DNA of 64,000 bases from an uncultured delta proteobacterium (GCA_963717005.1 OY970324.1:658937-722936); one strand, 5' to 3'. Positions 766 to 59,400 are shown, counted from the first letter of the stretch. The notes: a model not told the origin generated them from the sequence alone. Translations and numbers: made by a program.

Positions 766-2439
766 ATGCCTGAAGACGATCGAAAAATCGCGGAGGCCCG
801 CAAGAATTGGGAGGAGCGCAAGCTCAGCCCTTCGCTCAAGCGCGGCGCCGAGCGCAAGGAAAAATTCGTCACCAGCTCGGGAATCGAGGTCAAGCGCGAG
901 TACGACCCCGAAGACTTGAGCGATCTCGATTTCGTCAACGACCTCGGCTTTCCCGGCGAGTATCCCTTCACGCGCGGCGTGCAGCCGACGATGTATCGCG
1001 GGCGGCTGTGGACGATGCGCCAGTACGCCGGCTTCGGCAGCGCGGAGGAATCGAACCGCCGCTATCGCTACCTCTTCGAGCAGGGGCAGACGGGACTGTC
1101 GGTCGCCTTCGATTTGCCCACGCAGATGGGCCGCGACTCCGATCATCCGCTGGCCGACGGCGAAGTCGGGCGCGTCGGCGTGCCGATATGCTCGCTGGCC
1201 GATATGGACGTGCTGCTGTCCGAGCTGCCGCTCGACAAGATTTCGACCTCGATGACGATCAACTCGACGGCGTCGATCCTGCTGGCGCTCTACCTGGTCG
1301 TGGCGGAGCGGCGCGGCGTCAGCTGGAGCAAGGTCAACGGCACGATTCAGAACGACGTCCTGAAGGAATACGTGGCGCGCGGGACGTACATCTATCCGCC
1401 GCGCGGCTCGATGCGGATTATCACCGATATTTTCAGTTTCGCGACGAAGGAAGTTCCGAACTGGAATACGATTTCGATCTCCGGCTACCACATCCGCGAG
1501 GCCGGCTCGACCGCGGCGCAGGAACTGGCGTTTACGATTGCCGACGGGATCGCGTACGTCGATGCGGCGCTGAAGGCGGGACTGCAAATCGACGCGTTCG
1601 CGAGCCGCCTGTCATTCTTCTTCAACGTGCACAATAATTTCTTCGAGGAAGTCGCGAAGTTCCGCGCGGCGCGGCGGCTGTGGGCGAAGATAATGAAGGA
1701 GCGCTTCGGAGCAAAGGACGAACGCTCGATGATGATGCGGTTTCACGCGCAGACCGCGGGCTCGACGCTCACCGCGCAGCAAGTGGACAACAACGTAGTG
1801 CGGGTGACGATGCAGGCGCTGGCGGCGGTGCTGGGCGGAGCGCAATCGCTGCACACGAACTCCAAGGACGAGGCGCTCGCGCTGCCGACCGAGTCGTCGG
1901 TGCTGCTCGCGCTGCGCACGCAGCAGCTTATCGCGCACGAGTCGGACGTCGCGGACACGATCGATCCGCTCGGCGGATCCTACTACGTCGAGCGGCTGAC
2001 GAACGAGCTCGAAAAAAAGGCGGTCGAGTACCTGGCGAAAATCGACGATTTCGGCGGCGCGGTCGCGGCGATCGAGCGCGGCTACATGCAGCGCGAAATC
2101 CAGAACGCGGCATTCATTTACCAGCGCGAGATTGAAACCGGGCAGCGAATTATCGTAGGGGTCAATCAGTTTACCGGAGGCGGCGAACCGCCGGGGGAAA
2201 TTCTGCGGGTCAAGCCGGAGCTCGAGGCGAAACAGAAGGCGGGGGTAGCGCGGGTGCGGGCGGAACGAAACGCGGAGACAGCGAAAAAGGCGTGCGCGCG
2301 AGTCGAGGTGGCGGCGCGCGACGGGAGTAATCTGATGCCGCCGATCGTCGATGCGGTGCGCGGATGGTGCACGCTTGGGGAAATCTCGGACGCGATGCGC
2401 AAGGTGTTCGGCGAGTATTCGCCGGTAAATACCGTGTAG
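766..2439 (+). CDS. mcmA: Methylmalonyl-CoA mutase, substrate-binding (large) subunit of a split enzyme
   Basis: [64 protein letters not shown] Tyr and REAG Arg are the methylmalonyl-type specificity residues. No B12-binding DxHxxG domain in this chain. Confidence 0.93.
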
Positions 2440-2577
2440 CGTTTGGCGGGCGGATTCGTATAAAAGAAACGGAATCGGAAAGGGGCGGCGCGCGGCCGAT
2501 TTCATGAGCGTCGCAAACCAACTGGGGACGTGAAAATTAGCCGCGGCAACCCGCGCAATCCAGCGGAGAGAACGTAG

Positions 2578-3141
2578 ATGGGGCCGATCCCGAAGGGGAC
2601 ATTTTTAACCAAAGGCGTGGGGCGGCATCGCGAGAAGCTGACTTCTTTCGAGCTGGCGCTGCGGTCCGCGGGAATCGCCGAGTTCAACCTCGTGCGCGTC
2701 AAGTCGATTTTCCCACCCAACTGCAAATTGCTCAGCCAGCAGGAAGGATTGAAGTACCTGACGCCGGGGCAGATCGTTTTTGCGGTGATGAGCGACAATG
2801 CGACCAACGAACCGCATCGGCTGATAGCGTCGTCGGTGGGCGTCGCGCTGCCGAGCAATCCGGTGCAGTACGGATACCTGTCGGAGCATCACAGCACGGG
2901 CGAAACGGATCAGAAGGCAGGTGACTACGCGGAGGATCTGGCGGCGATGATGCTGGCGACGATACTCGGCGTCGATTTCGATCCGAATCTCAGTTACGAC
3001 GAGCGCAAGGACCTGTGGCGCATGTCGGACAAGATCGTGACGACGCGCAACGTCACGCAGTCGGCGATCGGCGATCGCGACGGGCTGTGGTCGTCGGTGG
3101 TCGCCGCTGCGGTCTTCGTCGATATCCCCAACGGCAAGTAG
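2578..3141 (+). CDS. pdaD: Pyruvoyl-dependent arginine decarboxylase proenzyme
   Basis: FLTKGVG.H.EKLTSFELALR.AGI..FNLV.V.SIFPP and GYLSEHH family motifs; cleavage site reads K-S rather than the usual S-S. Confidence 0.85.
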   Translation: MGPIPKGTFLTKGVGRHREKLTSFELALRSAGIAEFNLVRVKSIFPPNCKLLSQQEGLKYLTPGQIVFAVMSDNATNEPHRLIASSVGVALPSNPVQYGYLSEHHSTGETDQKAGDYAEDLAAMMLATILGVDFDPNLSYDERKDLWRMSDKIVTTRNVTQSAIGDRDGLWSSVVAAAVFVDIPNGK

Positions 3142-3207
3142 GTCGTCACCGATCTCATACATATCGCCCAATCAAATTTCGCACGATTAGACTCGCGAGC
3201 AACCACG

Positions 3208-4151
3208 GTGAAGGAGAATATTCTCATCTTTGGCGGCCGCGGGAGTCCTAAGCTGACGCTCAAGATTTGTGAGTACTTGCGGGTGAGGGCCGGTGCGGGG
3301 GAAGTGCTGCGCTTCTCGGATGGGAATCTGTTCGTCCGGGTCAAGGAAAACGTGCGCGGGCGGCGCGTCTATCTCGTGCAATCGACCGTCTTCCCGACCA
3401 ATGACAATTTCATGGAACTGCTCTTCTGGATCGACGCCTTGAAGCGTGCCAGCGCCGAGTCGGTCACGGTTGTAATGCCTTATTTCAGCTATGCGAAAGG
3501 GGACAAGAAGGACGAACCCAGAGTTTCAATCCGTGCCCGCGTATGTGCCGATGCTATTGAAGCCGCCGGCGCCGACCGCGTGGTGACGCTGGACTTGCAC
3601 GCGCCCCAGATCCAGGGCTTCTTCCGGATCCCGGTTGACGACCTTTACGCCCTTCCGGTGCTGGGTGAAAAGATCGCCCGCAAAAACTGGCAGACCTGGT
3701 CGTCGTCTCTCCTGACACGGGCTTCGCGAAGCAAGCACGCAAATTTGCCTCATTCCTCGGGACCTCGCTTGCCATCGCGAATAAGCAACGCAAGGCGCAC
3801 GACGAGCGCGCCGAGGTTCTTGAGATCATCGGAGAGGTGCGTGACAAGACTGCCTTGATTGTCGACGACTTCACGATCTCCGCCGGTACACTGGCCGACG
3901 CCGCGGAGAAACTCATCGAGCGCGGTGCAAAGGCGGTATATGCGGCAGTGTCCCACGGGGTCTTCAGCGGCGCCTCGATGGAGCGGCTCGACCGAAGTCC
4001 GATTCAAAGCCTTCTAATGACGGATTCAATCGAAACCCAGCCGGTGGCGCTCTCGCCGAAGGTCGAGGTTGTTTCCGTGGCACCGCTTTTCGGTGAAGCG
4101 ATTCGCCGCATCCACAATCGCGAAAGCATCAGCAACCTGTTCCCAGCGTGA
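3208..4151 (+). pseudogene. prs: Ribose-phosphate pyrophosphokinase, frameshifted in this sequence (possibly a sequencing error)
   Basis: FSDGNLFV, PYFSYAKGDK, LDLHAPQIQGFF in frame 1. After the A5 run at 3682-3686 the protein continues in another frame as LADLVVVSPDTGFAKQARKFA...IVDDFTISAGTL...SHGVFS to the stop at 4151. Confidence 0.9.
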
Positions 4152-4212
4152 ACCTGTGCTTCATGCTGCGCGCTGCCTCCTGCAAACGAGGGCGACAAAC
4201 GACGACGGTCGT

Positions 4213-4241
4213 TTGAACGACGCGCGAGCGGCGGGTAGGCT
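4213..4241 (+). promoter_or_regulatory. Sigma70-like promoter TTGAAC-N17-TAGGCT; ATG follows 6 nt after the -10 box (likely leaderless)
   Basis: -35 at 4213-4218, -10 at 4236-4241, ATG at 4248, no Shine-Dalgarno sequence. Confidence 0.55.
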
Positions 4242-4247
4242 CTAACT

Positions 4248-4550
4248 ATGGCGACAGAAATTCTCTACTGCTCGGCTTGAGGCTACAAGCCACGCGCGGC
4301 CAGTCTGGCCGCATCATTGGATTCCAGGTTCGGCGAGAAGGCGAACATCACGCCCGGCAAGTCGGGTCAGTTCGACGTGATCGTGAACGGAAGGCTGGCC
4401 TTTTCGAAATCGAGCACCGGCCGATTCCCGGTTGAGGGCGAAGTCGAGGAAATTTTCGCCGCGCTCAAGGAAGGCCGCGAGCCGGCGCCGGTCGAAATAA
4501 AAAAACCGGAGGGCTTCGTCAGTCGTATCCTCGACAAGCTCAGGAACTGA
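4248..4550 (+). CDS. SelW/SelT/SelH (Rdx family) selenoprotein with CxxU motif (100 aa, Sec at residue 11)
   Basis: MATEILYCSA-TGA(4278-4280)-GYKPRAASLA continues in frame into ORF 4317-4550, which has the Rdx features G..GQFDV.V.G.L.FSK...GRFP..GEV; SECIS-like hairpin downstream. Confidence 0.88.
4296..4312 (+). promoter_or_regulatory. Putative bacterial SECIS hairpin (GCGGCCA-GTC-TGGCCGC)
   Basis: Perfect 7-bp stem; G-leading loop 22 nt after the UGA, within the range known for bacterial SECIS elements. Confidence 0.65.
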
Positions 4551-4562
4551 ACTTCGATCCGC

Positions 4563-5660
4563 CTATGGATGCATGTCGAGGAATTCCTTGAAGCCGCTGC
4601 GTTCGTGCGGCCCGAGGATTGCCATCTCGAGAATTCCCATCCCTTCGCGCGAACCCATTTTTGCCTGGCACACCGCCTGGATGTGCTGATGCATCAGGTC
4701 GCGTTCGTTGACGTCGGCGGTTTTGAACGACTCGTAGGTTGAGGCGTCGGGCCCGACATACATTCCGTGGCCCCACTTGGGATGAAAGTAGCCGATGCCC
4801 TGCATGTAGAAGTTGTACAGTGTCTTTAGCTCGATGCGGCTTTCGCCGGCGCGAGGACTCCGCAAAATTATCTCGGCGCTCTTCGCGTGTCGCGTGCCAG
4901 AGGCATAGTTGATGTTGAAATCCACGCCAGTTGCGAGGTCCAGCGGGGCGCCAGGCTCCGCGCGCGTGACGGCGCCGAACTGATGCCAGCGCGAACCGTC
5001 GGCATTTTCGTTGCAATCGGAATGCGTGCAGACATCCTCGAAATTGGTCGGCGACCACAGCCAGTAAAACTGGCCCATCACGGGCGTCGGCGATGGCACT
5101 CCAGCGGGATCCTGCGGGCCGATTCCGCGCACGCCCCACGAGCGGTCGCGCGAACCCCAGACTCGCGCCGGGGTTGCATCGTAAGTCTTGCCGGCGACGG
5201 TCAGGCTGCCGCTGTAGCCGCCGTGCTGCGTGAAGCGCGTCAGGTCCATGATGAGCCGCGGGCCGGCGCGGCGCGAAAAGCGCGGCTCCTCGATTGCGTC
5301 GGCGCGCGCTTCGAACATCAGGTCGGCCTTGACCGCTTCGTGATTGACGCGCAGCCGCATCGAGCGCATCGGGCGCACGATCTCGATCGAGATGGGACCG
5401 ACGCGCGTATCCATCCGCTCGGCGCCGAGCACTCGCGACGCGCGCACGCAATGCTGCACACCGCCGGCGATAACGCTGAACGCGCAATCGATAATTCCGA
5501 CGTTCGGATAAATTCCCATCGCGACGGCGAAGTACGGCTCGCCCTCGCGAAAGTAACCGTTGAAAAAGAATCGATCGTAAAAGTTGCGGTCGCTGGTGAA
5601 GACCTGCTGAACCGGCTCCGGCGTTTGATGAATCGGATAGTCGTCGCCCTGCGTGATCAT
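4563..5660 (-). CDS. Conserved hypothetical protein, aromatic- and beta-strand-rich (possibly tocopherol-cyclase/CrtC-like fold)
   Basis: 365-aa ORF with RBS (GAGGAG); DDYPIHQTP, FYDRFFFNGY and RDRSWGVR segments look like a conserved family; fold assignment is a guess. Confidence 0.6.
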   Translation of the reverse strand: MITQGDDYPIHQTPEPVQQVFTSDRNFYDRFFFNGYFREGEPYFAVAMGIYPNVGIIDCAFSVIAGGVQHCVRASRVLGAERMDTRVGPISIEIVRPMRSMRLRVNHEAVKADLMFEARADAIEEPRFSRRAGPRLIMDLTRFTQHGGYSGSLTVAGKTYDATPARVWGSRDRSWGVRGIGPQDPAGVPSPTPVMGQFYWLWSPTNFEDVCTHSDCNENADGSRWHQFGAVTRAEPGAPLDLATGVDFNINYASGTRHAKSAEIILRSPRAGESRIELKTLYNFYMQGIGYFHPKWGHGMYVGPDASTYESFKTADVNERDLMHQHIQAVCQAKMGSREGMGILEMAILGPHERSGFKEFLDMHP

Positions 5661-47450: not shown

Positions 47451-48512
47451 ATGAGTCTCCTCACCCAAACCATCGCGTCAATTTTGCCTATCGACAACGA
47501 AGCGGCGTGGGCCGCTGACGCGCGGCTTAACTCCCTGACCAAGCCGCCCGGCAGCCTCGGCTATCTCGAACAGCTCGTGCGCCGCTACGCCGCGATCCGT
47601 CACGACGAATCGGTAAAATCCGGGCGCGGCGCGATCGCTGTCTTCGTCGCCGATCATGGCGTCGCGGACGAAGGCGTCAGCGCGTTTCCGCAAGCAGTCA
47701 CGGCCGAGATGCTGCGCAACATCGCGGCCGGCGGCGCCGCGATCAGCGTCCTCGCGCGCCGCTTCGGTTATTCACTGAAAGTTGTGGACGTTGGCGTCAA
47801 GATCGATACCAGCGCCAAGCCGCTCAGCGGTGTGACATATCGCCGCATCGCCGCCGGCACGCGCAACTTCCTCGACGGGCCGGCGATGACGCCCGATGAA
47901 ACGACACGCGCACTCGAAATCGGAATCGAAATCGCACGCGAACTGTCCGACGGCGGCGCGACACTCATCGGCATCGGCGAGATGGGCATCGCGAACAGCA
48001 CGCCCGCCGCCGCAATCCTGTGCGCGCTTACCGGGCTGCGACCCGAGTCGATAGTCGGACGAGGAACCGGCCTCGACGACGCCGGCGTCCGCCGCAAAAT
48101 CGAGGTGGTCACGCGCGCGCTCGAGATTCATCGCGACAAACTTACGCCGGAGTCGATGCTGGCGGCGCTCGGCGGCTTCGAAATCGCCGCGATGGCCGGG
48201 GTCTGCATCGGCGGCGCCGCATCCAGGATCCCAGTGGTAGTTGACGGCTTCATCGCGACCGCCGCCGCCGCGGTCGCGGAAAAGATTTATCCGGGCCTGT
48301 TCGATCACCTGTTTTTCAGCCATCGCTCGGCCGAAGGCGGCCATGCGCTCGCGCTCGATCACTTCAAGCTCCGTCCAATTCTCGATCTCGACCTCCGACT
48401 CGGCGAAGGCACCGGCGCCGCGCTCGCGATGAACGTGATCGACTCCGCGCTTGACCTGCTCGACCACATGGCGACGTTCGAGAGCGCGGACGTCTCCGGC
48501 AAAGTCCGATGA
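47451..48512 (+). CDS. cobT: Nicotinate-nucleotide--dimethylbenzimidazole phosphoribosyltransferase
   Basis: LTKPPGSLG.LE, FVADHGV..EGVSAFPQ.VT, IGEMGIANST, GGFEIAAM.G, VDGFI, LRLGEGTGA. Confidence 0.95.
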   Translation: MSLLTQTIASILPIDNEAAWAADARLNSLTKPPGSLGYLEQLVRRYAAIRHDESVKSGRGAIAVFVADHGVADEGVSAFPQAVTAEMLRNIAAGGAAISVLARRFGYSLKVVDVGVKIDTSAKPLSGVTYRRIAAGTRNFLDGPAMTPDETTRALEIGIEIARELSDGGATLIGIGEMGIANSTPAAAILCALTGLRPESIVGRGTGLDDAGVRRKIEVVTRALEIHRDKLTPESMLAALGGFEIAAMAGVCIGGAASRIPVVVDGFIATAAAAVAEKIYPGLFDHLFFSHRSAEGGHALALDHFKLRPILDLDLRLGEGTGAALAMNVIDSALDLLDHMATFESADVSGKVR

Positions 48513-49285
48513 GCGCCGACGCGACTGCGCCCGCATCGAAAAGCGGCTTCTTCACCGAACTGCCGCTCGCGATCAGCTTCCTGACGATCCTTCCGGTGAT
48601 CGACCAAGGTCCCGCGTCTGAGGAGACCGTCGCCGCCTCGTTCGCGTGGTTCCCGATTGTCGGCTTCCTGATCGGGTTGGCGCTGGCCGGCGAGGACTGG
48701 ATTCTCGCTCACGTCTTCGCGCAGGTGATTCGCTCGGTTCTCATCATCGTCTCGCTCACCGTCATCACCGGCGCGGTTCATCTCGACGGACTGGCCGACA
48801 CCGCCGACGCGCTCGGCGCTGGACGGGACCGCACCCGCGCCCTCGACATCCTCCGCGACAGCCGCGTCGGCACCTTCGGCGCGAGCGCAATCTTCTTCGA
48901 CCTGGCGCTGAAGATCCTCGCGCTTTCGACGCTGGCGGGCCATCGCCGCTACGCCGCGCTGATCGTCGCACCGATGCTCGCGCGGTGGGCGATGCTGCTG
49001 GTCGCCCGCGGCCTGCCTTATCTGCGCGCCTCCGGCTCGGGCTCGACCCTGCTCAACGGAACAGTCTCAGGTGCACGAACCGCCGTCGTCGCAATTTTCA
49101 CAATCGTCGTAATGCTGATGCTTGGCGCGCTACGGCCGATCGCACTCGCCACCGCGGTCGCAATCGCAATCGTCTTCACGATGCGGGCGTTCTACCGGCG
49201 CTGGCTGGGCGGCGTCACGGGCGATTTGATCGGAGCGTGCGGCGAGCTGGTCGAGATAGCCGTGCTGGTCACGATGGCATCGTGA
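48509..49285 (+). CDS. cobS: Adenosylcobinamide-GDP ribazoletransferase (cobalamin synthase)
   Basis: FLTILP, TGAVHLDGLADTAD, L.ILRDSRVGTFG, GGVTGDLIGA..E. Confidence 0.95.
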   Translation: MSADATAPASKSGFFTELPLAISFLTILPVIDQGPASEETVAASFAWFPIVGFLIGLALAGEDWILAHVFAQVIRSVLIIVSLTVITGAVHLDGLADTADALGAGRDRTRALDILRDSRVGTFGASAIFFDLALKILALSTLAGHRRYAALIVAPMLARWAMLLVARGLPYLRASGSGSTLLNGTVSGARTAVVAIFTIVVMLMLGALRPIALATAVAIAIVFTMRAFYRRWLGGVTGDLIGACGELVEIAVLVTMAS

Positions 49286-49287
49286 TG

Positions 49288-49809
49288 TCACTTCACCCTG
49301 AGCGGGTATCCCGCGACCATCAGGATCACCTGCTCAGCGACGCCCGCGACTTTCTGATTGGTCCATCCCAGCAGATCGCGGAAGCGGCGCGACTCGGCGT
49401 GATCGGTCGGCACGATTCCCGATCCAACTTCGTCGGTCACGACGATACTCGCGAACGGCGCGTCCTTCAGCGTGTTGGCAAGCTGGTCCGCCGCGCCGAG
49501 CACCGGGCCGTCGTCTCGCCCGTGGCGTTGCATCAGGTTGGACACCCACAGCGTCAGGCAATCGAGCACCACGAGGTCGGCGCTGTGGCGCAGCTTGTCG
49601 AGCGCGGCGACAACTGCGACCGGCTCTTCGACCGTCTGAAAGTCCGGCGGCCGCGTCGTGCGATGAAATTCGATTCGCGCCGTCATTTCGTCGTCGAGCG
49701 CCTCGCCCGTCGCCACAAAGAACTTACGCTGATACGGGAGCGCGAGCTTCGACGCCCGCATGCTCTTGCCGCTGCGTGCACCGCCGGTGATTAGCGTTAC
49801 CGTGCCCAT
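49288..49809 (-). CDS. cobU: Bifunctional adenosylcobinamide kinase / cobinamide-phosphate guanylyltransferase
   Basis: LITGGARSGKS, DDEM.ARI..H...RP, LDCLTLWVSN, VTDEVGSGIVP, RFRD.LG..NQ, MVAGYPL. Confidence 0.95.
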   Translation of the reverse strand: MGTVTLITGGARSGKSMRASKLALPYQRKFFVATGEALDDEMTARIEFHRTTRPPDFQTVEEPVAVVAALDKLRHSADLVVLDCLTLWVSNLMQRHGRDDGPVLGAADQLANTLKDAPFASIVVTDEVGSGIVPTDHAESRRFRDLLGWTNQKVAGVAEQVILMVAGYPLRVK

Positions 49810-49875
49810 CCGAATGATCGAGCGTACACGATTGCAGCCCGCGTGACGAAAATTTTTCGAGCGCCGCACGCGCGG

Positions 49876-49904
49876 TTGACTGTGCGCGGTGCCGCGCGTA
49901 ACTT
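49876..49904 (+). promoter_or_regulatory. Sigma70 promoter TTGACT-N17-TAACTT driving riboswitch-btuB
   Basis: Near-consensus boxes immediately upstream of the aptamer. Confidence 0.65.
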
Positions 49905-49910
49905 CGGCGT

Positions 49911-50050
49911 CGCACCCGGTGCTCGGGAAGCCGGTTCAAATCCGGCGCTGCCCCGCAACTGTGTGGGGGGACGACGGCCCATCATGCCACCGCTTCGGCG
50001 GGAAGGCGGGCCCGAGGACGAACCCCAAGCCAGGAGACCGGCCGGGTCAC
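49911..50050 (+). ncRNA. Cobalamin riboswitch
   Basis: GGGAAGCCGGTTCAAATCCGGCGCTGCCCCGCAACTGT, GCCAC...GGGAAGGC and the B12 box AAGCCAGGAGACCGGCC; upstream of a TonB-dependent receptor. Confidence 0.93.
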
Positions 50051-50101
50051 TAACTGTCTGCCTTCCGCGGGGAGGGTGGCCTCAGGCCCGCTTTCCTGAA
50101 G

Positions 50102-50140
50102 CCCGATCCCTCGATCCGCGAGCGGTCGGGTTTTTGTTTT
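50102..50140 (+). terminator. Riboswitch expression-platform terminator
   Basis: CCCGATC...GGTCGGG stem followed by TTTTTGTTTT, between the aptamer and the btuB start. Confidence 0.75.
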
Positions 50141-50194
50141 TCGTCGCCCGATCTTCCTCCGCGCGCCGGCAGCCTTTGAACTCGGAGGAAGTTC

Positions 50195-52267
50195 ATGCGG
50201 TTTCCTATTTTGATCGTCGCGACAATTCTGACGACAGCGCTGCTTGCGCCGATCGCTCGCGCTCAGACGCCCACGGCCGCGTCTTCGCCAGCGCAGACAC
50301 AAACCAATTCTAGATCGGCAAAGAATAAAGCGAGTCAGCCGGCGACGGCGCCCAAAAAGGAAGAGGCGCAGAAGCTGAATCCGGTGGTCGTCACCGCGAC
50401 TCGCATCCCGCAGCCAATCGGCGAGATCGGCACGACCATCACGGTGGTCGAAGATCCGCAGATCCAGGCGCAGAAGATCCAGCGGGTCGAAGACGTGTTG
50501 CGGCAGGTGCCCGGCGTGCAGGTCACTCAGAGCGGCTCACCCGGCTCGGTCACCGACGTGTCGATTCGCGGCGCGACGCCGTCGCAAACGCTGGTGCTCA
50601 TCGACGGGGTCGAGGTCAACGCGGGCGCGACCGGCAGCTTCGACATGGCTAACCTGACCACAGACAATCTCGATCGCGTCGAGATTTTGCGCGGCGCGGG
50701 CGGCTCGCTCTACGGCTCGCAGGCTATCGGCGGCGTCGTCAACGTGCTGACTCCGGAGGGCGAAGGCCCCCCGACCGCGAGCATCCTTTCCGCTGGCGGC
50801 AATCGCGCGACCAGCCAGCAAGTTGGGACCTTCAGCGGCGCCGATGGAAACCTCCACTACTCGGGCGGAGTGTCGTACTTCTCGACCGAAGGATATCGCC
50901 CGGTCAACGACAACTCTGACGACCTCGCCGGCAACGTGCGGCTCGACTACCATCTCGGCGACGACACCGTGCTCCGCGGCTTCGCGCGTTACTCCGCGTC
51001 GAACGTCAGCCTGCCAAATTTCCTGGTGTTTTCGGGCGTGCCGCTCGACTCGACTGCGCATCAGCGCGACGAGTTCATGCTGTTCAAGGGCGAAGTCGAG
51101 CATCACTTCGGCGAAAGCCTGCTCGTGCGCGTGAGCGCCTCCTTCGTGCGCCAGGACGTGCGCGTGAACGCGCCGCCATTTCCGGGTGGCACCGTTTTCG
51201 GCACACCTTATTTCGAGACCGATTCGATTCCCGAGGAGACCCGCGGCGTCAACGCGGAGGCGACCTACACCTGGCCCGCCGCCTTGCCCGGCTTCCGCAC
51301 GCTGGTGGGCTTCGATTTTCTCGATCGATGGCTGCGCACGGACAGCTCCTGCAGCTTTTGCGATCCGCTGCCGCCGTTCGGAATCGGAGTGACCAAATTC
51401 CACGCGGGCCGCCAGGAATACGCCGGCTATCTCGAGCAGGAGGGCAGTCTCTTCGACGGCCACTTGCTCGTCACCGGCGGATTCCGCGTCGATGGCAACA
51501 GCCAGTTCGGCGAGGAGGTCAGTCCCGCGTGGTCGGTCGCGATTCCGATTACTAAAATCTCGACCACGCTGCGCGGCAGCTACAGCGAAGGCTTTCGCGC
51601 GCCCGCATTCGACGAGCTGTACTACCCGAACTTCGGCAATCCCAATCTGAAGCCCGAAATTTCGAGCGAGTACGACGGCGGCTTCACCACCAACTTCGGC
51701 GAGCGTGCCTCATTCACCGCGACCTACTTTTCGCGCCGCGTGAAGAACCTGATTGTCACCGTGCCATGCCCGACCTGTGTCTTCGGATCGGAAGCGGGCA
51801 ACGCGGCGCGCGTCGATGTGCAAGGCGTCGAGATCGCGCCGAGCCTCACGATGGCCAAGGGACTAACGCTGAGCGGCAACGTGACTATTCTCGACGAGAC
51901 GCACGTCGATGCGCGCGGCTCGACGGCGCAGCCGCTGCGGGTGGCGAAGCACACGGCGTCGGCGCTGGTGCAATACGTGCGCAGCGGGACTTTTCTGCCG
52001 CACGACAAAATCGTCGCCAACGTGAGCTACGTCTTTGTCGGCGATCGCGACGACATTACGGTCGAGTCCACGATCGCGAATCACTCGGCGTACAACCTGG
52101 TAAATGCGGTCGTGTCGTACACGATGGGAATCCCGCTGAATCACATAAACAACGAAGAGGTCTTCGCGCGCGTAGGCAACCTGATGGACCGCAACTACTC
52201 GGAGGCCTTCGGCTTCAAAGCCCCGACGATCAACGTGCTCGCCGGCATCAAGCTGGATTTCGAGTAG
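50195..52267 (+). CDS. btuB: TonB-dependent cobalamin/cobinamide receptor
   Basis: Signal peptide; VVVTATR TonB-box region; plug domain (VEILRG.GGSLYGSQAIGGVVN); NPNLKPE; terminal Phe-Glu; B12 riboswitch upstream. Confidence 0.9.
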   Translation: MRFPILIVATILTTALLAPIARAQTPTAASSPAQTQTNSRSAKNKASQPATAPKKEEAQKLNPVVVTATRIPQPIGEIGTTITVVEDPQIQAQKIQRVEDVLRQVPGVQVTQSGSPGSVTDVSIRGATPSQTLVLIDGVEVNAGATGSFDMANLTTDNLDRVEILRGAGGSLYGSQAIGGVVNVLTPEGEGPPTASILSAGGNRATSQQVGTFSGADGNLHYSGGVSYFSTEGYRPVNDNSDDLAGNVRLDYHLGDDTVLRGFARYSASNVSLPNFLVFSGVPLDSTAHQRDEFMLFKGEVEHHFGESLLVRVSASFVRQDVRVNAPPFPGGTVFGTPYFETDSIPEETRGVNAEATYTWPAALPGFRTLVGFDFLDRWLRTDSSCSFCDPLPPFGIGVTKFHAGRQEYAGYLEQEGSLFDGHLLVTGGFRVDGNSQFGEEVSPAWSVAIPITKISTTLRGSYSEGFRAPAFDELYYPNFGNPNLKPEISSEYDGGFTTNFGERASFTATYFSRRVKNLIVTVPCPTCVFGSEAGNAARVDVQGVEIAPSLTMAKGLTLSGNVTILDETHVDARGSTAQPLRVAKHTASALVQYVRSGTFLPHDKIVANVSYVFVGDRDDITVESTIANHSAYNLVNAVVSYTMGIPLNHINNEEVFARVGNLMDRNYSEAFGFKAPTINVLAGIKLDFE

Positions 52268-52278
52268 GATGCGCCTTT

Positions 52279-52585
52279 TGTCATTTTGAGCGCGGAGAGA
52301 TGGCTTGTCATCGTGACTGAAGCGAGCAGCGCGGGCTCTTAACTCTGTCCTCCTGACGAAGCGAGCAACGCGACCATTTTTGTCATCCTGACAAAGCGAG
52401 CAACGCGAGCGGTCGGAACAATCTCGGACAGCTTCGCGTCAGCGAAGCTGGTACCGGTTTTGTAATCGCGCAGATGTCCTTACTCTCATTGGATGCAGCA
52501 ATGCAGAACCGGAACCGGCGGCGCTCACGCGCCGCTGTCCGAGATCCTTCCTGCCGCTCGCGCTGCTCGCTTCGTCAGGATGACA
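52279..52585. repeat. REP/REPIN-like cluster: three degenerate direct copies plus a 52-bp inverted pair
   Basis: TGTCATCCTGAC.AAGCGAGCA.CGCGAGCGG..GGAA..ATCTCGGACAGC at 52381-52432 and inverted at 52534-52585 (46/52 identical); partial copies start at 52279, 52306 and 52346. Confidence 0.8.
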
Positions 52586-52618
52586 AGAGTTGCGTGCCCG
52601 CTGTGGCGTCGGAGACCC

Positions 52619-53188
52619 TCACACAATCTCAGTGTGGAGCAAGCTGTTCTGCGCGGCGGCGAAATATCTATCGAAGATTGCGCGGGTTCGATCGCGACGC
52701 TCCGCCAGTTTCGCAAGCATTCGGGCTGCAGGATCTGACGTATTCGGTTCCAGGGACTGAGGGCCAACCGGAAGCTCCGGGGGGAGCGGAGTGTTCATCG
52801 GGGTCGGTATCGCGGCTCCTGATGGCGCTGGCGCGGGGCCGCTTCCCGGGGCTGTATTGGCTGCTCCGCTGAAGACGCTTGAGAGCGTTATACAGAGCTG
52901 CCAGTCGGAATTGGGGAAAGGCGTAAGCTTTTTCAGCTCCTCCGGAGTCATGTTTTGGGCGGAGGCGGACTGACTGAATACGGCGCGGCAATGTTCGCGC
53001 ATGGCCGTCCATCCTGCCTGATCCCACCCATTGGCCCTAAAATTCGGTGGGATCCCTTCTGGAATGAAGCCTACCGGAGCATTGCCGGTCGGCGCTGCAG
53101 ACGGCGTCTGCGCGTTGGCGTTCGTCCCCACCAGCGCTGCGACCAGAGTGACGACGATCACGATTGGCGCTGCTCTTACAGCGTTCAG
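52619..53188 (-). CDS. Hypothetical secreted Pro/Ala-rich protein fused in frame to a displaced copy of the glnE C-terminus
   Basis: GGAGG then CTG at 53188 (or GTG 53161); signal peptide ending ANA; ends AARMLAKLAERRDRTRAIFDRYFAAAQ. Confidence 0.55.
   Translation of the reverse strand: MNAVRAAPIVIVVTLVAALVGTNANAQTPSAAPTGNAPVGFIPEGIPPNFRANGWDQAGWTAMREHCRAVFSQSASAQNMTPEELKKLTPFPNSDWQLCITLSSVFSGAANTAPGSGPAPAPSGAAIPTPMNTPLPPELPVGPQSLEPNTSDPAARMLAKLAERRDRTRAIFDRYFAAAQNSLLHTEIV
52649..52729 (-). repeat. Diverged direct-repeat copy of the glnE 3' end (partner 53357-53437)
   Basis: 69/81 identical; 9 of 12 differences are synonymous in the glnE frame. Confidence 0.9.
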
Positions 53189-53341
53189 TTATTCCTCCGG
53201 TTGCTTGCGGATCGAATGCCAATCACGACGCATCTTGCTGACCGAGAGTTACTTTGTCCTACCGGCAGTTGACACCCGAAATTGCGATGAAAGTCAAACG
53301 GAAGTGCTGCGCGCAGATGACGACCGCAAAGGCTCAGTGCA

Positions 53342-56308
53342 TCAAGCTCCCCTTGCCTGCTCGGCCGCAAAATATCGATCGAAGATTGCGCGGATGCGGT
53401 CGCGGCGCTCGGCCAGTTCCGCGAGCATTCGGGCGGCGCCGTCGGCGCCGTCGAAGCCCATTCGGCGCGCCAGTGGGCGAATGCCAATCACGGAGGTTTG
53501 GATCGCCCAGGCCGGCTGGTCGCTCTCGATGCGCAGCCGGTTTTCCAGGCGCGACAGGAATCGGTAGTCGTCTTTGAGAATCGCGGCATCGGCGGCCTTC
53601 AGCAGATGCAAGCCGGCGAGCGCTTCAAGCGATTCCATCGTGTTGCGCACGCGCAGCTCGCGATGCCGATGGCCGTGGCTCAGCGCCATCATCTGCACCA
53701 GGAACTCGACATCGACCAGACCGCCGTGGCCCTGCTTGATGTTGAGCCGGGTCTTGTCCTCGGCGCCGATTTCCATTTCCATCCGCCGGCGCATCGCCGC
53801 TATCTCGCCGACCTCGGCCGCCGTCAGTCCGCGGCCGTACACGAATTCCTGGCGCGCCGCTTCGACTTCGCGGCCGAGTTCGGCGTCGCCCGTTATCACG
53901 CGCGCGCGCACCAGCGCCTGCCGCTCCCATACCGCGGAACTTTGCCGATGATAGTCGCGAAAGCCCGCCAGCGACGTGACCAACGGGCCCGCGTTGCCCG
54001 ACGGACGCAGGCGCAGATCGAGTTTGTAGGCGTAGCCCTCGCGCGTGCGCGATTCGAGGATCGCGATCAGCTTCTGCGTGATTCGCGACGCGATTTCGGG
54101 GCTGCCCGCGGCCGCTTCCGCGCGATCGTCATAAACAAAAATCAGATCGAGGTCGGAGTTGTACGACATCTCGCTGGCGCCGAGCCGGCCCATCGCGATC
54201 GCGCACAGGCGCATCGTGGGCGGAATCGTGAAGCGCGCCGCAGTCTGAATTCGCGCCAGCGCCATCGCTTCGTCCAGCACCGTTTCCGCCAGACTCGTCA
54301 GCTCGCGCTCGACCTCGAACAACTCGAGGCTGCCGGCCAGGTCGGCAATCGCGATGCGCAAGAATTCCTGGTGACGAAAGACGCGCAGCGCATCGAGCTT
54401 GCTCTCGAAATCGGGACTCGCCGCGATCAATCCCGCCAGCTCGTCGCGCAGCTCGGCCGGACTGCGCCGCGTCGCCGCCAGGTCCGAGCGCACCAGCGTG
54501 TCGAGCATGTCGGGATGGCGGATGAAGATGGTCGAGAGGTAGGCGCTCGAGGCGAACAGCCGCAGCAGGATGCGGCGGGTCGCGGGATGTTGCTCGAGCA
54601 GCGCGAGGAACGACGTTCGCGCGCCGACCGCGGCGATGAACTCGGCGAGGTTCATCAGCGCCAGATCGGGATCGGGCAGTTTGCCGATCTCGTCGATCAT
54701 CATCGGGCCGAGGCGCTCGAGCAGCTCGCGGCGGCGCGGGCTGGTCGGCGCGTGCGAGGGTCCCCGTGCGAGCAGTTCGAGATGGCGCGCGCTCTCGTCG
54801 GCGCGCGCGAAGCCAAGCTCGCGCAGGTAGCGCGTCGAGGATTCCGGATCGAGCGCTGAGTTCCAGGCGAGTTCCGCCGCGGAGGAGACCGAGCGGGTTG
54901 AGTCTTCCTCGCCGCCGGCCAGGGTCTCGCGGAACTGCAGCTCGACCAGTGCGCGATGAGTCCTGAGCAGCTCGCTGAATTTCCTGATCGCCGCCGCACC
55001 TTTGCCAAAACCCATTCGCGCCGCCAGCGCGTGCATCCCGTCCTTGTCGGGGGGCAGCACGTGCGTCTGCAGTCCGGCCACGACTTGCAGCTTGTGCTCG
55101 ACGTCGCGCAGGAACAGGTATGCGTCGGCGAGTTCGCGCGCGCGTTTCGATGGCAGGTAGCCGAGCGCGTCAAGCTTGTCGAGCGCGGCGACGGTCTGCT
55201 CGATTCGCAGCCGGGGATCGCGTCCGCCATAAATCAGCGTCAGCGCCTGCACGATAAATTCGAGTTCGCGGATTCCGCCGCGGCCGAGCTTGATGTTGCG
55301 CTCGATCATCGCCGGCGTCTTCAGCTCGGCCTCGATCTGATGCTTCATCGCGCGCAACTGACGCAGCGTGTCGAAGTCGAGGTAGCTGCGAAACACAAAA
55401 TGATTCAGCTCCGCGCGCAACTGATAGCCGATTTCCAGATCGCCGGCGACCGGCCGCGCCCGCAGCAGCGCCGCCCGTTCCCACGGCTCGCCCAGGTTCT
55501 CGTAGTAGTTGATCGCACCGTCAATCGGCGTGACCAGCGGCGCCGAACGACCGCCGGGGCGCAGCCGCAGATCGATTCGAAAGCATCGCGCCGACAGAAT
55601 TTCGGTGAACCATTCGCCCAGCCGCGCCGCCGCTTCGGAACTGTCCGGCGATCCCGGCGACGCGTGAAGATAAATCAAATCGACGTCCGAGCTGAGGTTG
55701 AGCTCGCGCGCGCCAAGCTTGCCCATCGCCAGCACGCAGAATCGCCCAATCGCCCGCGAGCGCTCGCCCAGAAACCGGGTCGCAAGATTAAGCGCGGTGC
55801 GAATGCATTCGTCGGCCAGCTCCGACATCGCGAGCGCCGTCTCGCCGACGCTCAGCCGGTCGAGCAAATCGGCAATCGCCACCTGCACCATGATGCGGCG
55901 CATGAACTGTCCGAGCACCGCCGCGGCAGCCTGGCGATCGGGCGCGTCGATCGCAGCCCGCTCGGTGCGCATCGCAGCGACGAGACCGTCAACGGTCTGG
56001 GCGCGCGCATCGAGAAAAATGTTTGCCCAACTCTCGCCGGCTAGAGACAGCTCGGTCGCGACCAGCTCCGACGAGCCGAGACAAAAGATCAGATCGGCGC
56101 CGGCCGCGCGGTCGCGCAACACCTCCTTCAGGTCGGTGGCGGAATTTTCGGCGAGCTTGGTCAGAAACGCGAGCGCCAACTGCTCGTCAGGCGCACGATC
56201 TTCGACGGCGGCAAGCGCCTGCTGGGCCAGCCGATCGTTGCCGAGCCTCTCCTTCAGCCGTCTGGCGAGGACGGCGAGTTGCGGCGATTGCGCGGCCTTG
56301 CGTGGCAT
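53342..56308 (-). CDS. glnE: Bifunctional glutamine synthetase adenylyltransferase / adenylyl-removing enzyme
   Basis: Two NTase domains: MGKLGARELNLSSDVDLI and MGRLGASEMSYNSDLDLIF; IDLRLRP.G; NIKLGRGGIRELEF; WERQAL.RAR. Confidence 0.96.
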   Translation of the reverse strand: MPRKAAQSPQLAVLARRLKERLGNDRLAQQALAAVEDRAPDEQLALAFLTKLAENSATDLKEVLRDRAAGADLIFCLGSSELVATELSLAGESWANIFLDARAQTVDGLVAAMRTERAAIDAPDRQAAAAVLGQFMRRIMVQVAIADLLDRLSVGETALAMSELADECIRTALNLATRFLGERSRAIGRFCVLAMGKLGARELNLSSDVDLIYLHASPGSPDSSEAAARLGEWFTEILSARCFRIDLRLRPGGRSAPLVTPIDGAINYYENLGEPWERAALLRARPVAGDLEIGYQLRAELNHFVFRSYLDFDTLRQLRAMKHQIEAELKTPAMIERNIKLGRGGIRELEFIVQALTLIYGGRDPRLRIEQTVAALDKLDALGYLPSKRARELADAYLFLRDVEHKLQVVAGLQTHVLPPDKDGMHALAARMGFGKGAAAIRKFSELLRTHRALVELQFRETLAGGEEDSTRSVSSAAELAWNSALDPESSTRYLRELGFARADESARHLELLARGPSHAPTSPRRRELLERLGPMMIDEIGKLPDPDLALMNLAEFIAAVGARTSFLALLEQHPATRRILLRLFASSAYLSTIFIRHPDMLDTLVRSDLAATRRSPAELRDELAGLIAASPDFESKLDALRVFRHQEFLRIAIADLAGSLELFEVERELTSLAETVLDEAMALARIQTAARFTIPPTMRLCAIAMGRLGASEMSYNSDLDLIFVYDDRAEAAAGSPEIASRITQKLIAILESRTREGYAYKLDLRLRPSGNAGPLVTSLAGFRDYHRQSSAVWERQALVRARVITGDAELGREVEAARQEFVYGRGLTAAEVGEIAAMRRRMEMEIGAEDKTRLNIKQGHGGLVDVEFLVQMMALSHGHRHRELRVRNTMESLEALAGLHLLKAADAAILKDDYRFLSRLENRLRIESDQPAWAIQTSVIGIRPLARRMGFDGADGAARMLAELAERRDRIRAIFDRYFAAEQARGA

Positions 56309-56386
56309 CTCTTAAACGATAACAGACGCGGAGAGTGCGCGCGCCGCAACTATTGGCGCTGTCAGGTCACCGCCGGCGGGACGCGA

Positions 56387-57553
56387 TCAGGCCTTTTGTG
56401 CGAGGGTCTTTTTCGAATGATGAGTCGTCTTCGACGAAGCGCGAGAATGGTGATGAGAATGTGACGCATGCCCTTTCGCGGCGCGGCGCGGGGCGAAGTC
56501 GGTCTTGATCGGTGCCGGTCGAATCGCGGGTTCATCCTCGATGCCGGGGAAATACTTTTCCTCGTCGCGATGCACCTGCAAGGCGGCCAGGAATTCCGCG
56601 TAGTAATTCTTCACCGCGAAGCCAAAATGCGGCCCCTGGTAGTGCTGGACCATTTCGGAGTAGTCGCCGCCGTAGATTCCTGCCGCGCGCGCCACTCCGC
56701 CGGTGCCATAGTTGTACGCCGTAATCGCCAGCGGCCAATCGCCCAGCGTCTCGTAGTTCGAGCGCAACAGCTTGGCCGCCGCCACCGTCTCGCGCTCGGG
56801 GTTCAGCCGATCGTCGTGATAGCGCGTGATTCTCATGTAGTGCTTGCCGGTATCGCGCGTGAACTGCCAGATCCCGACCGCGCCGGCGCTCGAGCGCGAA
56901 GCGCCGTGGAAGCCCGACTCGACATGCGCGAGCGTCACCAGCTCGGGCGGGATTCCGGCCTCGCGGAAGATCCGCTCCATCGACGGCATGTAATAGCGGC
57001 TGCGCAGCAGCCCTTCATGGAATTGCTCGCGCAGCCCTTCCTGCACGCGCAAATTCTGTGCGGCGGCGGTGTAGGCGCTCGGCGGCTCGCCCTTGAACAT
57101 CGCGGCAATCTCGCGCTCCTCGTCATCGGCGGGCGGACGGGTCGCGAGGCGATTCAGGATGTCGGAATATTTGGTCTTGAGGTAGTCGTTGGCCCAATCG
57201 ATATCGGTGCGAGTGGGCTGACCGTCGCCGGGAAGATGAAAGACGTGGTAGATGCGCGCAACATTGTCGCGATCCATCACGATGAAGTCATTCTCGGAGT
57301 ACTTGGTAAACACATCGATCCAGAAATTCACGTTGGGCTGGATCGCCGCCGGCCGCGGGAATGGGAGCGTGGTTTCCGACGAGGCGTCGGGCGGGGTCGC
57401 AACCGCAAACAGCATCGCGAGCGCGAACGCCCCGATTACTTTTGCGATTCGATTCGCCGACAATTTCTCTTGCAACAAAAGCTCTTCCCCCGCGCATGAG
57501 TCTCCGCTCGCGCGCGTCTCCCGGGCTGCCCGCAAGGAAGCAGGCTTTATCAA
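56387..57553 (-). CDS. Lytic transglycosylase (MltD-like SLT domain); true start probably downstream of the ORF start
   Basis: IP.EL..LAHVESGF...RSSAGAVGIWQF...TG; DDRL.PE..T.AAA..L; WPLAITAYNYG.G; no LysM, His/Lys-rich tail. Confidence 0.88.
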   Translation of the reverse strand: MIKPASLRAARETRASGDSCAGEELLLQEKLSANRIAKVIGAFALAMLFAVATPPDASSETTLPFPRPAAIQPNVNFWIDVFTKYSENDFIVMDRDNVARIYHVFHLPGDGQPTRTDIDWANDYLKTKYSDILNRLATRPPADDEEREIAAMFKGEPPSAYTAAAQNLRVQEGLREQFHEGLLRSRYYMPSMERIFREAGIPPELVTLAHVESGFHGASRSSAGAVGIWQFTRDTGKHYMRITRYHDDRLNPERETVAAAKLLRSNYETLGDWPLAITAYNYGTGGVARAAGIYGGDYSEMVQHYQGPHFGFAVKNYYAEFLAALQVHRDEEKYFPGIEDEPAIRPAPIKTDFAPRRAAKGHASHSHHHSRASSKTTHHSKKTLAQKA

Positions 57554-57754
57554 TTAGCTGCCCTTGCTCCCGTAGTCAACAAATTCGACGCCTAAGCTAA
57601 AGGGGATTCCTGCAATCATCCGTTTAGATACTCGACAGCACGCACAATTTACCGCCTCGCCAGGGTTTCCGTGACGCGAGGTTCCGCACAGCATCGGTTC
57701 GGCGGCGGGAGAGTCGCTGTGGGCAGCGGCTTGACCTTTGGGTCTCGGTGATGT

Positions 57755-57776
57755 AAATGAGAATCATTCTCAATTT
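57755..57776 (+). promoter_or_regulatory. Fur-box-like operator overlapping a promoter
   Basis: Perfect 7-1-7 palindrome TGAGAAT-C-ATTCTCA (57758-57772), close to the Fur consensus TGATAATnATTATCA; TTGACC at 57731. Confidence 0.75.
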
Positions 57777-57792
57777 CAGGAGCGCCCGCCTC

Positions 57793-58146
57793 GTGACTCT
57801 AAAATTCATCTCGACCATTACCTCAACCGCATTCGCTTCACTGGCACTACTCGCCCTATTCGCTGCGCCGCCGGCGCGTGCGGCTGACGATTCTTCGTTG
57901 CGCTTTCATGCCGGCGCGGTCGAGCCCGCGAGCCTAACGGTGCCTGCCAACACTCCTGTGAAATTGCAGGTCACCAACTCCGGTGACGCGGCCGTCGAGT
58001 TCGAGAGCTTCGAACTGCATCGCGAGCGCGTCGTGCAGCCCGGGCAGACAATCACTGTGTACATTCCGGCGCTGCCGCCCGGCACCTACCCGTTCTTCGA
58101 CGACTTCAGCCACGGCGCGGTAAAGGGCGAGATTGTCTCGCGCTGA
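57793..58146 (+). CDS. Periplasmic cupredoxin-domain protein (FtrB/EfeO-cupredoxin-like)
   Basis: GTG start after CAGGAG; signal peptide ending ARA; EFESFELHRERVVQPG and YPFFDDF motifs. Confidence 0.8.
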   Translation: MTLKFISTITSTAFASLALLALFAAPPARAADDSSLRFHAGAVEPASLTVPANTPVKLQVTNSGDAAVEFESFELHRERVVQPGQTITVYIPALPPGTYPFFDDFSHGAVKGEIVSR

Positions 58147-58594
58147 GGATGCGCCGGGTCGCCGCGCGTTTCGGGCGATCCTTTGGTCAGCGGCGATCGC
58201 GATCATGGCGGCTCAATTCGTGCGCCCCGATCGTGCGAATCCCCCCGTGAGCGGCGATTTGTCCGCGCCGCCGCCGGTCAAAAGTGCAATTCAACGCGCC
58301 TGCTACGACTGTCATTCGAACCAAACGCGATGGCCCTGGTACAGCGCCGTGGCGCCGCTCTCATGGTGGATTCACTACGAGGTCGATAAGGGCCGGAGGC
58401 GGCTGAACTTCTCGTCATGGACTGACTACACCTCCGACCCCGGCACCGAGGATCAAAAGCTCGACGAGGCCGCGCGGCTGATCGCCAGCAACGCGATGCC
58501 GCCGTGGTACTACCTCGCGATGCATCCCGCGGCGCGACTGACATCCACCGAGCGCGACGCAATCACGCGATGGATTGCCGGCGAGAAATCGTGA
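58133..58594 (+). CDS. Monoheme c-type cytochrome (Haem_bd domain)
   Basis: ACYDCHSN..WPWYS.VAP.SW; GR..LNFS.W; MPPWYYLAMHP. Confidence 0.88.
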   Translation: MSRAEDAPGRRAFRAILWSAAIAIMAAQFVRPDRANPPVSGDLSAPPPVKSAIQRACYDCHSNQTRWPWYSAVAPLSWWIHYEVDKGRRRLNFSSWTDYTSDPGTEDQKLDEAARLIASNAMPPWYYLAMHPAARLTSTERDAITRWIAGEKS

Positions 58595-59400
58595 TGATCA
58601 TCCGCGCAATCGTTTTCGGCGCGGCGATGTTGGTGATCGCGGCGAATGCGTCGGCGCAAGTCGATCCGTTCGAGTTCGAGGTGTATCCGTATCAGAGCGT
58701 GGGCAGGGGCATGGTCGAGCTGGAGTCTCTCAACAGCTTCGTGCCGAACGGTCACAGCCACGGCGGCGACGGCACCTCGGCCGGCGATTACCCGAGCCAG
58801 GCGATGTATCGCACCGCGTTCGAGCTCACTTACGGGTTCACGGACCACGTCGAGGCCGCCGCGTACCTGAATCTCGCGCATCCCAACGCCGACTCGTTCG
58901 AATACGCCGGCTCCAAGTTTCGCGTGCGCGGCAGCCTGTTCGAGCAGGGCGAGTTGCCGGTGGATCTCGGATGGTATCTCGAACTGGAATGGCATCGAAC
59001 GCCGCAATTCGACGACAACGAACTGGAACTCGAGCTGAAGCCGATTATCGAGAAGGACTTCCGGAAATTTGAAATCTCACTCAATCCGATTTTCGAAAAG
59101 AGCGTCTTTGTCGGACCCAACAAGAACAAGGGCTTCGAGTTCGGCTACGCCGCGGGCATCTACTACGACTACCTTCGCGAGATTTCACCCGGCCTCGAGT
59201 TCTACGGCGCGCTCGGGCTTATCGACGACAACGATCCGCTGCACGCGCAGCAGCACTACATCTTCCCGGTACTAAAGGGCTCGCTGCCGCGCGGAATCGA
59301 GTACAACCTCGGCCCCGGCATCGGCCTGACCCGCGGCTCCGACCGCGTCATCGTGAAGTTCAACCTGGAGCTGGAACGCTTCGTCGGCTCGCTGTTCTAG
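58594..59400 (+). CDS. Predicted outer-membrane beta-barrel protein
   Basis: Signal peptide ending ASA; alternating aromatic/polar strands; C-terminal Phe; TGATG-coupled to the cytochrome gene. Confidence 0.65.
   Translation: MIIRAIVFGAAMLVIAANASAQVDPFEFEVYPYQSVGRGMVELESLNSFVPNGHSHGGDGTSAGDYPSQAMYRTAFELTYGFTDHVEAAAYLNLAHPNADSFEYAGSKFRVRGSLFEQGELPVDLGWYLELEWHRTPQFDDNELELELKPIIEKDFRKFEISLNPIFEKSVFVGPNKNKGFEFGYAAGIYYDYLREISPGLEFYGALGLIDDNDPLHAQQHYIFPVLKGSLPRGIEYNLGPGIGLTRGSDRVIVKFNLELERFVGSLF

Follow-up and report, generated by a model that had tools for sequence, protein, structure and literature searches.

The investigated stretch of DNA (64 kb, called the window in the following) belongs to a bacterium of the Binataceae (phylum Binatota) and contains a small gene that almost certainly encodes a SelW-like selenoprotein of the Rdx family. 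In the ORF list this gene appears as an ORF of 77 aa, which starts at TTG 4317 and ends at 4550. An ATG at 4248 is located in frame with this TTG, 23 codons upstream of it, and both starts named in the preliminary description are thus present in the sequence. From ATG 4248 the frame reads M-A-T-E-I-L-Y-C-S-A-TGA-G-Y-K-P-R-A-A-S-L-A-A-S before it passes into the called ORF. Codons 7–13 are Y-C-S-A-TGA-G-Y with the TGA at 4278–4280, which is the CxxU signature that had been proposed, and since codon 11 is a UGA the first 23 codons were lost by the gene caller. The features of the locus are listed here:

4213–4218, plus strand: −35-like hexamer TTGAAC; TTGnnn is found at the same register in 63 of 81 orthologues
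4236–4241, plus strand: −10-like hexamer TAGGCT; spacer of 17 nt to the −35-like hexamer, gap of 6 nt to the ATG
4248–4550, plus strand: coding sequence (100 codons, then the TGA stop at 4548–4550) for the SelW-like selenoprotein of the Rdx family, very likely with Sec at codon 11
4269–4280, plus strand: redox motif C8-S9-A10-U11 (TGC TCG GCT TGA), aligned with 2FA8, 2LJK and 2NPB
4278–4280, plus strand: in-frame UGA, codon 11, almost certainly read as Sec; TGA in 81 of 81 orthologues and in the additional contig L082
4296–4312, plus strand: hairpin of the bacterial SECIS type, stem 4296–4302/4306–4312, loop GUC 4303–4305
4317–4319, plus strand: TTG chosen as start by the ORF caller, equivalent to Leu24; not conserved as a start
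4512–4547, plus strand: C-terminal tail G89–N100 (GFVSRILDKLRN), located beyond the Rdx domain and conserved in most orthologues

Relatives of the gene were collected by scanning one genome per species, by which 85 were found and 80 were kept (loci L001–L080). All 80 are metagenome-assembled genomes of Candidatus Binatus or Binataceae. The Rdx gene is situated directly after a gene for a pyruvoyl-dependent arginine decarboxylase in 79 of the 80 loci, and the decarboxylase gene itself follows a gene of the methylmalonyl-CoA-mutase family (766–4550 in the window; L001–L080). About 36 nt separate the decarboxylase stop from the Rdx ATG, and soil RNA contigs span this junction; no functional link between the two genes is obvious. 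A prs gene, which encodes ribose-phosphate pyrophosphokinase, lies between them only in the window, L006 and L048 (L005 shows a short partial match), and the promoter-like motif described below stays with the Rdx gene in both arrangements, with or without prs. In the window prs (3208–4151) is split into two frames by a deletion of 1 nt in an A-run (gcAAAAAct, near 3681–3686) in comparison with the intact gene of L006. As prs is essential, this frameshift looks like a homopolymer error of long-read sequencing rather than a pseudogene; run X12 yielded no contigs over prs. Similar frameshifts were observed in the orthologous Rdx copies of L025, L028, L039, L048 and L069. On the other side, a gene of 365 aa (4563–5660, minus strand) is convergent with the Rdx gene, leaving 12 nt between the two stops; it adjoins the Rdx gene in 47 loci and gave no Pfam match at E ≤ 1e-5. 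The annotated remainder of the window resembles an ordinary chromosome (peptide ABC transporter, VIT, RecN-like, cobalamin salvage and GlnE). It includes a cobalamin riboswitch (49900–50060, 99.8 bits) upstream of a TonB-dependent receptor gene, with B12 region genes at 47451–49869 and 50195–52267 and the region extending over 49900–60060; the riboswitch adjoins cobT-like, cobS and cobU genes, as in an ordinary cluster for B12 uptake and salvage.

We compared the protein obtained by reading through the TGA (written as Cys) with family profiles. It reaches 63.9 bits on Pfam PF10262 (Rdx; cutoff 22.6 bits) and covers profile positions 3–70 of 74, so that read-through restores the whole Rdx/SelW domain. 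The called ORF of 77 aa scores 33.5 bits and begins only at profile position 29 of 74, which means that the first strand and the motif of the active site are missing from it. On NCBIfam TIGR02174 (CXXU_selWTH) the full protein scores 55.2 bits, above the cutoff of 34.2 bits, and on the equivalog NF041051 (SelTWH_Campy) it scores 75.8 bits, below the cutoff of 88 bits; the protein is therefore related to the Campylobacter-type subgroup but stands outside it. Among solved structures the best matches are human MIEN1 (2LJK, 3e-7), mouse SelW (2NPB, 1e-5) and six bacterial Rdx proteins. The column of the UGA is occupied by the second Cys of CxxC in 2FA8 and 2LJK and by Cys in the mouse SelW chain 2NPB, where it is the Sec position; these homologs hence carry Cys, or mark the site of Sec, exactly where the preliminary description had placed Sec. 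The GYKP following the UGA is identical to that of mouse SelW.

The fold was predicted from an AlphaFold2 model of the homologue P0001, which is 82% identical to the window protein and has Gly written at the Sec position. The model has a pLDDT of about 80 over the domain and contains the elements E3–8, H14–28, E32–37, E42–46, E49–53 and H65–74, followed by a disordered linker (77–90) and a short helix (92–95) in the C-terminal tail. The CxxU motif is placed between strand E3–8 and helix H14–28. When the model was compared with the PDB by Foldseek, the top 23 matches were all members of the Rdx family (best rmsd 1.1 Å over 74 residues), and thioredoxins came next. The predicted fold is thus thioredoxin-like with a beta-alpha-beta-beta-beta-alpha order of the Rdx type.

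Next, we regarded the conservation of codon 11. It is TGA in 81 of 81 orthologues and a Cys codon (TGC/TGT) in none of them, and a further metagenome contig from JGI (L082) has TGA at this codon as well. ATG 4248 is conserved in all 81 orthologues. The N-terminal consensus is MATEILYC[SA]A-TGA-GYKPRAASLA, and it varies at third codon positions: at codons 2, 3, 9 and 15 the third-position entropy amounts to 1.6–1.8 bits while their amino acids are 66–99% conserved. Variation of third positions with retained amino acids indicates translation of the sequence before as well as after the TGA. As its terminal stop the gene has TGA in 48, TAG in 18 and TAA in 14 orthologues, and the internal TGA is invariant.

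This pattern bears on two simpler explanations of the locus. According to the first, the TGA would be a sequencing error or an inactivating mutation, and the gene a pseudogene derived from one with a Cys codon. The assembly does contain indel errors, as seen for the frameshifted prs, and several orthologous copies are frameshifted. However, the errors observed are indels and not substitutions, and the genomes of 80 species, all independent, share the TGA with the JGI contig and with contigs from DNA as well as RNA runs. We consider this explanation effectively refuted, with next to no chance of being correct. According to the second, the gene caller would be right: TGA 4278 would be a true stop, the gene would consist of the 77-aa ORF, and the upstream ATG…TGA would be a leader of 10 codons or non-coding. 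Such an ORF is what a mechanical list gives (4317–4550), and its product still passes the Pfam cutoff with the 33.5 bits mentioned above. But this product would be devoid of strand beta1, of the CxxC/U motif and of half of helix 1. In the orthologues codon 24 is CTN, TTA/TTG or ATN, from which it follows that the TTG of the caller is not a conserved start. Furthermore, if the frame of ATG 4248 is followed from the TGA to TTG 4317, the protein sequence of these 12 codons is conserved and synonymous changes occur, and promoter-like or Shine–Dalgarno motifs are positioned by ATG 4248 and not by 4317. A true stop at this place is accordingly highly improbable.

We also considered that TGA might be reassigned in the whole genome (code 4 or 25). 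This was ruled out, as TGA ends 20 of the 37 confident ORFs of the window and the Rdx gene itself. UGA is therefore an ordinary stop elsewhere in the organism, and recoding is specific to the position at codon 11.

Downstream of this codon we examined the hairpin at 4296–4312. Its letters are GCGGCCA (4296–4302), GTC (4303–4305) and TGGCCGC (4306–4312), which form seven perfect pairs. The perfect 7-bp stem and the loop led by G had been described correctly before, but the distance of 22 nt given for the hairpin applies to the loop: the stem begins 15 nt after the TGA. A bacterial SECIS element is a hairpin that closely follows the UGA and has a G in its small apical loop (PMC1088965), and the hairpin at 4296–4312, with its 7-bp stem and small loop with G, fits this published description. 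In a single sequence the fold energy of the region is unexceptional (z = −1.36), and a scan for sigma-70 consensus promoters and terminators over 4100–4700 returned 0 sites. From the window sequence by itself, neither the hairpin nor the promoter would thus be better than chance, and it is the comparison with relatives that settles both the hairpin and the promoter-like motif as conserved.

In the alignment of 81 sequences (73 of them distinct) 98% of the cells are paired over the seven pairs, compared to 29–47% when the 3′ partner was slid by 1–3 columns as a control. The changes in the stem comprise ten GC>GU, three CG>UG and two AU>GU (15 G–U wobbles); one compensatory GC>CG in L075 is the only pair changed on both sides, and a few mismatches occur at the outermost pair. 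Covariation is scarce because the element hardly varies, which makes synonymous sites the stronger test. The third-position entropy of the stem codons A17, A18, L20 and A21 is 0.17, 0, 0 and 0.67 bits (mean 0.21), whereas the neighbouring fourfold codons outside the stem, P15 and A22, show 1.80 and 1.77 bits. For 21 other conserved fourfold codons the average is 1.18 bits (one-sided Mann–Whitney test against the stem, p = 0.002). Ser19 is encoded by AGT in 78 of 78 sequences with Ser at this place, and the T of this codon is the U of the loop. The GC3 of the genome is about 0.75, i.e. G or C is strongly preferred at third positions and AGT is disfavoured. The G and the U of the loop are invariant in the 81 sequences, and the amino-acid changes A>V and S>G in the stem keep the pairing via G–U wobbles.

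Could the hairpin nevertheless be a by-product of the peptide AASLAA, or have another role (mRNA stability or attenuation) that is unrelated to the decoding of UGA? The conserved peptide, the near absence of covariation and the weak z-score of the fold would agree with this. It is contradicted by the fourfold sites, which are frozen inside the stem and free one codon outside of it, by the invariance of a disfavoured codon that supplies the loop U, by wobbles that preserve the pairs through amino-acid changes, and by an apex that equals a curated SECIS consensus. We therefore rate this explanation as very unlikely. Judged from the alignment, selection acts on the RNA structure of the hairpin in addition to the encoded protein.

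Among the Rfam families, SECIS_3 matches the region best (4290–4319), with 15.6 bits against a gathering score of 63. The agreement is confined to the 13-nt apex of the hairpin, GGCCAGUCUGGCC, which equals the SECIS_3 consensus letter for letter. That the score is far below the gathering score is due to the Rfam SECIS models also encoding sequence of formate dehydrogenase; as a control, fdhF of E. coli was scored with SECIS_2, where it obtained 87 bits, and with SECIS_3, where it obtained 36 bits (the gathering scores of the two models are 63 bits for SECIS_3 and 70 bits for SECIS_2).

We further analyzed the sequence upstream of the ATG. A motif TTGnnn-N17(16)-TAnnnT precedes the ATG in 63 of 81 orthologues, with a spacer of 17 nt in 60; the gap between TAnnnT and the ATG measures 6 nt in 56 orthologues and 7 nt in 5. 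As a background value, such a motif ends 4–8 nt upstream of only 0.09% of the window positions. A GGAG Shine–Dalgarno sequence is found in 15 orthologues, all of them without the promoter-like motif, and in none of the sequences do both occur together. This distribution suggests that the mRNA is leaderless in most species and that the hexamers act as a putative promoter. For the promoter TTGAAC-N17-TAGGCT of the preliminary description, the hexamers, the spacer and their conservation stand, but the hexamers are below the threshold of the promoter scanner, and transcripts also enter from the upstream gene. Several soil RNA contigs extend upstream into the PvlArgDC gene, so that read-through transcripts or DNA carry-over exist and a leaderless start is something we infer.

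Public sequencing runs contained at most 12% of the sampled words over 3900–4900, so none of them represents the exact organism. Words of the gene are present in 24 metatranscriptomes of soil or peat. Contigs from four soil metatranscriptomes cover 4230–4420 and beyond, including the part upstream of TTG 4317, and for the contigs from these four no variant at the TGA is listed.

The C-terminal tail is conserved as GFVxRxLxKLRN in most orthologues and is missing in the short-form orthologues L050, L051, L061, L063–L065, L071–L075 and L078–L080. In another clade the tail reads ..LRRLxDKFRN and follows a long linker rich in Ala, Pro and Lys. The tail may be an amphipathic helix for docking or membrane contact. 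In the metagenome-assembled genome SMAG_U14043 the region with the mutase, decarboxylase and Rdx genes occurs twice (L041 and L071). The Rdx gene has the long tail in one copy and is of the short form in the other, and the two copies stem either from a genuine duplication or from two strains that were placed in one bin.

In the protein database nearly all of 119 close relatives (clusters) are fragments of 57, 77 or 81 aa, a pattern to be expected when all gene callers end the frame at the UGA. Two entries have full length; at the site of Sec, P0001 shows Gly and P0070 shows Trp. For P0001 no coding DNA is on record. The Trp of P0070 corresponds to a TGA in its DNA (locus L082, 653–883) and is hence a translation artefact; annotation pipelines appear to have translated P0070 with another genetic code. 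The stored fragments are without the active site, and a corrected annotation would restore the catalytic CxxU motif. On the whole we regard 4248–4550 as very likely a true gene for a recoded selenoprotein, which the databases annotate wrongly.

In order to find the machinery for Sec insertion and further selenoproteins, the surroundings of the gene were searched. By tblastn on the window and the 80 loci (~1.4 Mb of flanks), no match to selA, selB or selD better than E = 0.4 was obtained, with E. coli SelA, SelB and SelD probes that serve as leads only. ARAGORN and Rfam gave no tRNA-Sec in the 64 kb of the window or in the flanks of the orthologues. Nothing predicts that sel genes are close to the Rdx gene. 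An 89-nt ‘tRNA-Ala(tgc)’ called by ARAGORN in L061 (3103–3191, anticodon position 30) corresponds to no Rfam tRNA and is probably a false call. A screen of the 1.4 Mb for conserved ORFs bridged by TGA was overwhelmed by ordinary genes that show conservation off-frame; when the window was screened more strictly by GC3, the Rdx gene was the only convincing TGA-bridged candidate.

The residue inserted at codon 11 deserves separate consideration. The UGA might be recoded to something other than Sec, either to Cys via a tRNA(Cys) resembling tRNA-Sec and SelB, or to Trp or Cys by near-cognate read-through; the product would then be a CxxC-type Rdx protein without selenium. Insertion of Cys at UGA in dependence on SelB has been described for some bacteria, the sel genes and tRNA-Sec were not found in the window or the orthologue flanks, and the sequence evidence shows recoding, not which amino acid is used. 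If the product contained Cys, however, a one-step change of TGA to TGC or TGT would be neutral, yet it is seen in none of the 81 orthologues. The protein moreover belongs to a classic Sec family, with a U-GYKP context as in mammalian SelW, and bacterial SelW-like proteins are reported to have few Cys homologues in Sec-using organisms (PMC1794560). Another residue is consequently unlikely. The classic Sec family, the lack of any Cys codon in 81 orthologues and the SECIS-type hairpin together point to Sec as the inserted residue, and the UGA of codon 11 almost certainly encodes selenocysteine. The use of Sec in this lineage, which the preliminary description had put forward, is a strong inference; the UGA and the hairpin have been retained by all Binataceae orthologues that were found.

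SelW-like selenoproteins that have CxxU and a SECIS inside the gene have been known from bacteria since 2005, and in the Sargasso Sea data no selenoprotein family was more abundant (PMC1088965, PMC1794560); few Cys homologues of SelW-like proteins were noted in Sec-using bacteria (PMC1794560). The gene of the window shares several properties with the bacterial SelW-like proteins of Zhang, Gladyshev and colleagues (TIGR02174): the protein is small and of the Rdx type, the UGA of its CxxU is close to the N-terminus, and a SECIS hairpin with a G in its small apical loop follows directly. It differs from them in its origin from soil Binataceae/Binatota and in the extra conserved tail GFVxRxLxKLRN. 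With mouse SelW (2NPB) the window protein has the YC-x-A-U-GYKP motif and the fold in common (sequence match E = 1e-5), but no more than about 29% of the residues are identical, and the C-terminal tail is without a counterpart in mouse SelW. In addition, the SECIS of eukaryotic SelW is located in the 3′-UTR, whereas in the window the element is part of the coding sequence and begins 15 nt downstream of the UGA. The Rdx structures with Cys (2FA8, 2P0G, 2OJL, 2OKA, 2OBK and 3DEX) and human MIEN1 (2LJK) have the motif at the same position and superimpose on the P0001 model with an rmsd of 1.1–1.3 Å over ~74 residues (TM-score 0.75–0.90, target-normalised); they are CxxC proteins with Cys where the window gene has UGA, and their identity is 22–30%.

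The SECIS of E. coli fdhF (SECIS_2) and SECIS_3 resemble the window hairpin in being placed directly after the UGA and in the apex …A-GUC-U…. Counted from the U of UGA, the G-U of the loop is at nt 23–24 in fdhF, which was studied experimentally, and at nt 26–27 in the window, i.e. one codon further. Unlike the fdhF SECIS and SECIS_3, the window hairpin has neither a bulged U nor a lower stem. In the literature we found no paper linking Binatota with selenocysteine or selenoproteins, nor does the BSepDB paper name this phylum in its text. The gene is very probably a SelW-like selenoprotein gene in a lineage for which we found no earlier report, with the tail and a presumably leaderless promoter as its peculiarities.

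From these data the following course can be proposed. Translation would start at AUG 4248, and UGA 4278–4280 (codon 11) would be decoded as selenocysteine instead of a stop. The hairpin at 4296–4312, 15 nt downstream and with its loop G-U-C, would be the SECIS that recruits SelB with Sec-tRNA(Sec) to the ribosome, and translation would then run on to the ordinary UGA stop at 4548–4550. The product would adopt a thioredoxin-like beta1-alpha1-beta2-beta3-beta4-alpha2 fold, in which Cys8 and Sec11, located in the loop before helix 1, could form a reversible selenenylsulfide; by means of this bond the protein would act as a thiol-dependent oxidoreductase. The lineage-specific C-terminal helix may serve for docking. 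In a leaderless mRNA the UGA would be only 30 nt and the SECIS 48 nt away from the 5′ end.

A combined reading would be that Sec is universal in Binataceae, which has been unreported, that the SelW-like protein strictly retains Sec and that its mRNA is mostly leaderless. We consider this combination possible but rather doubtful as a whole; if it is true, the gene would exemplify, in nature, SelB-dependent recoding in an mRNA without a leader. The absence of a Cys replacement in 80 species fits earlier reports that Cys forms of SelW-like proteins are rare in Sec-using bacteria. The understanding of Sec insertion or of the Rdx family is left unchanged by the finding. The Binataceae are an uncultured lineage that is widespread in soil; many soil metatranscriptomes contain transcripts of the gene, and our result implies that UGA is decoded as Sec in this lineage.
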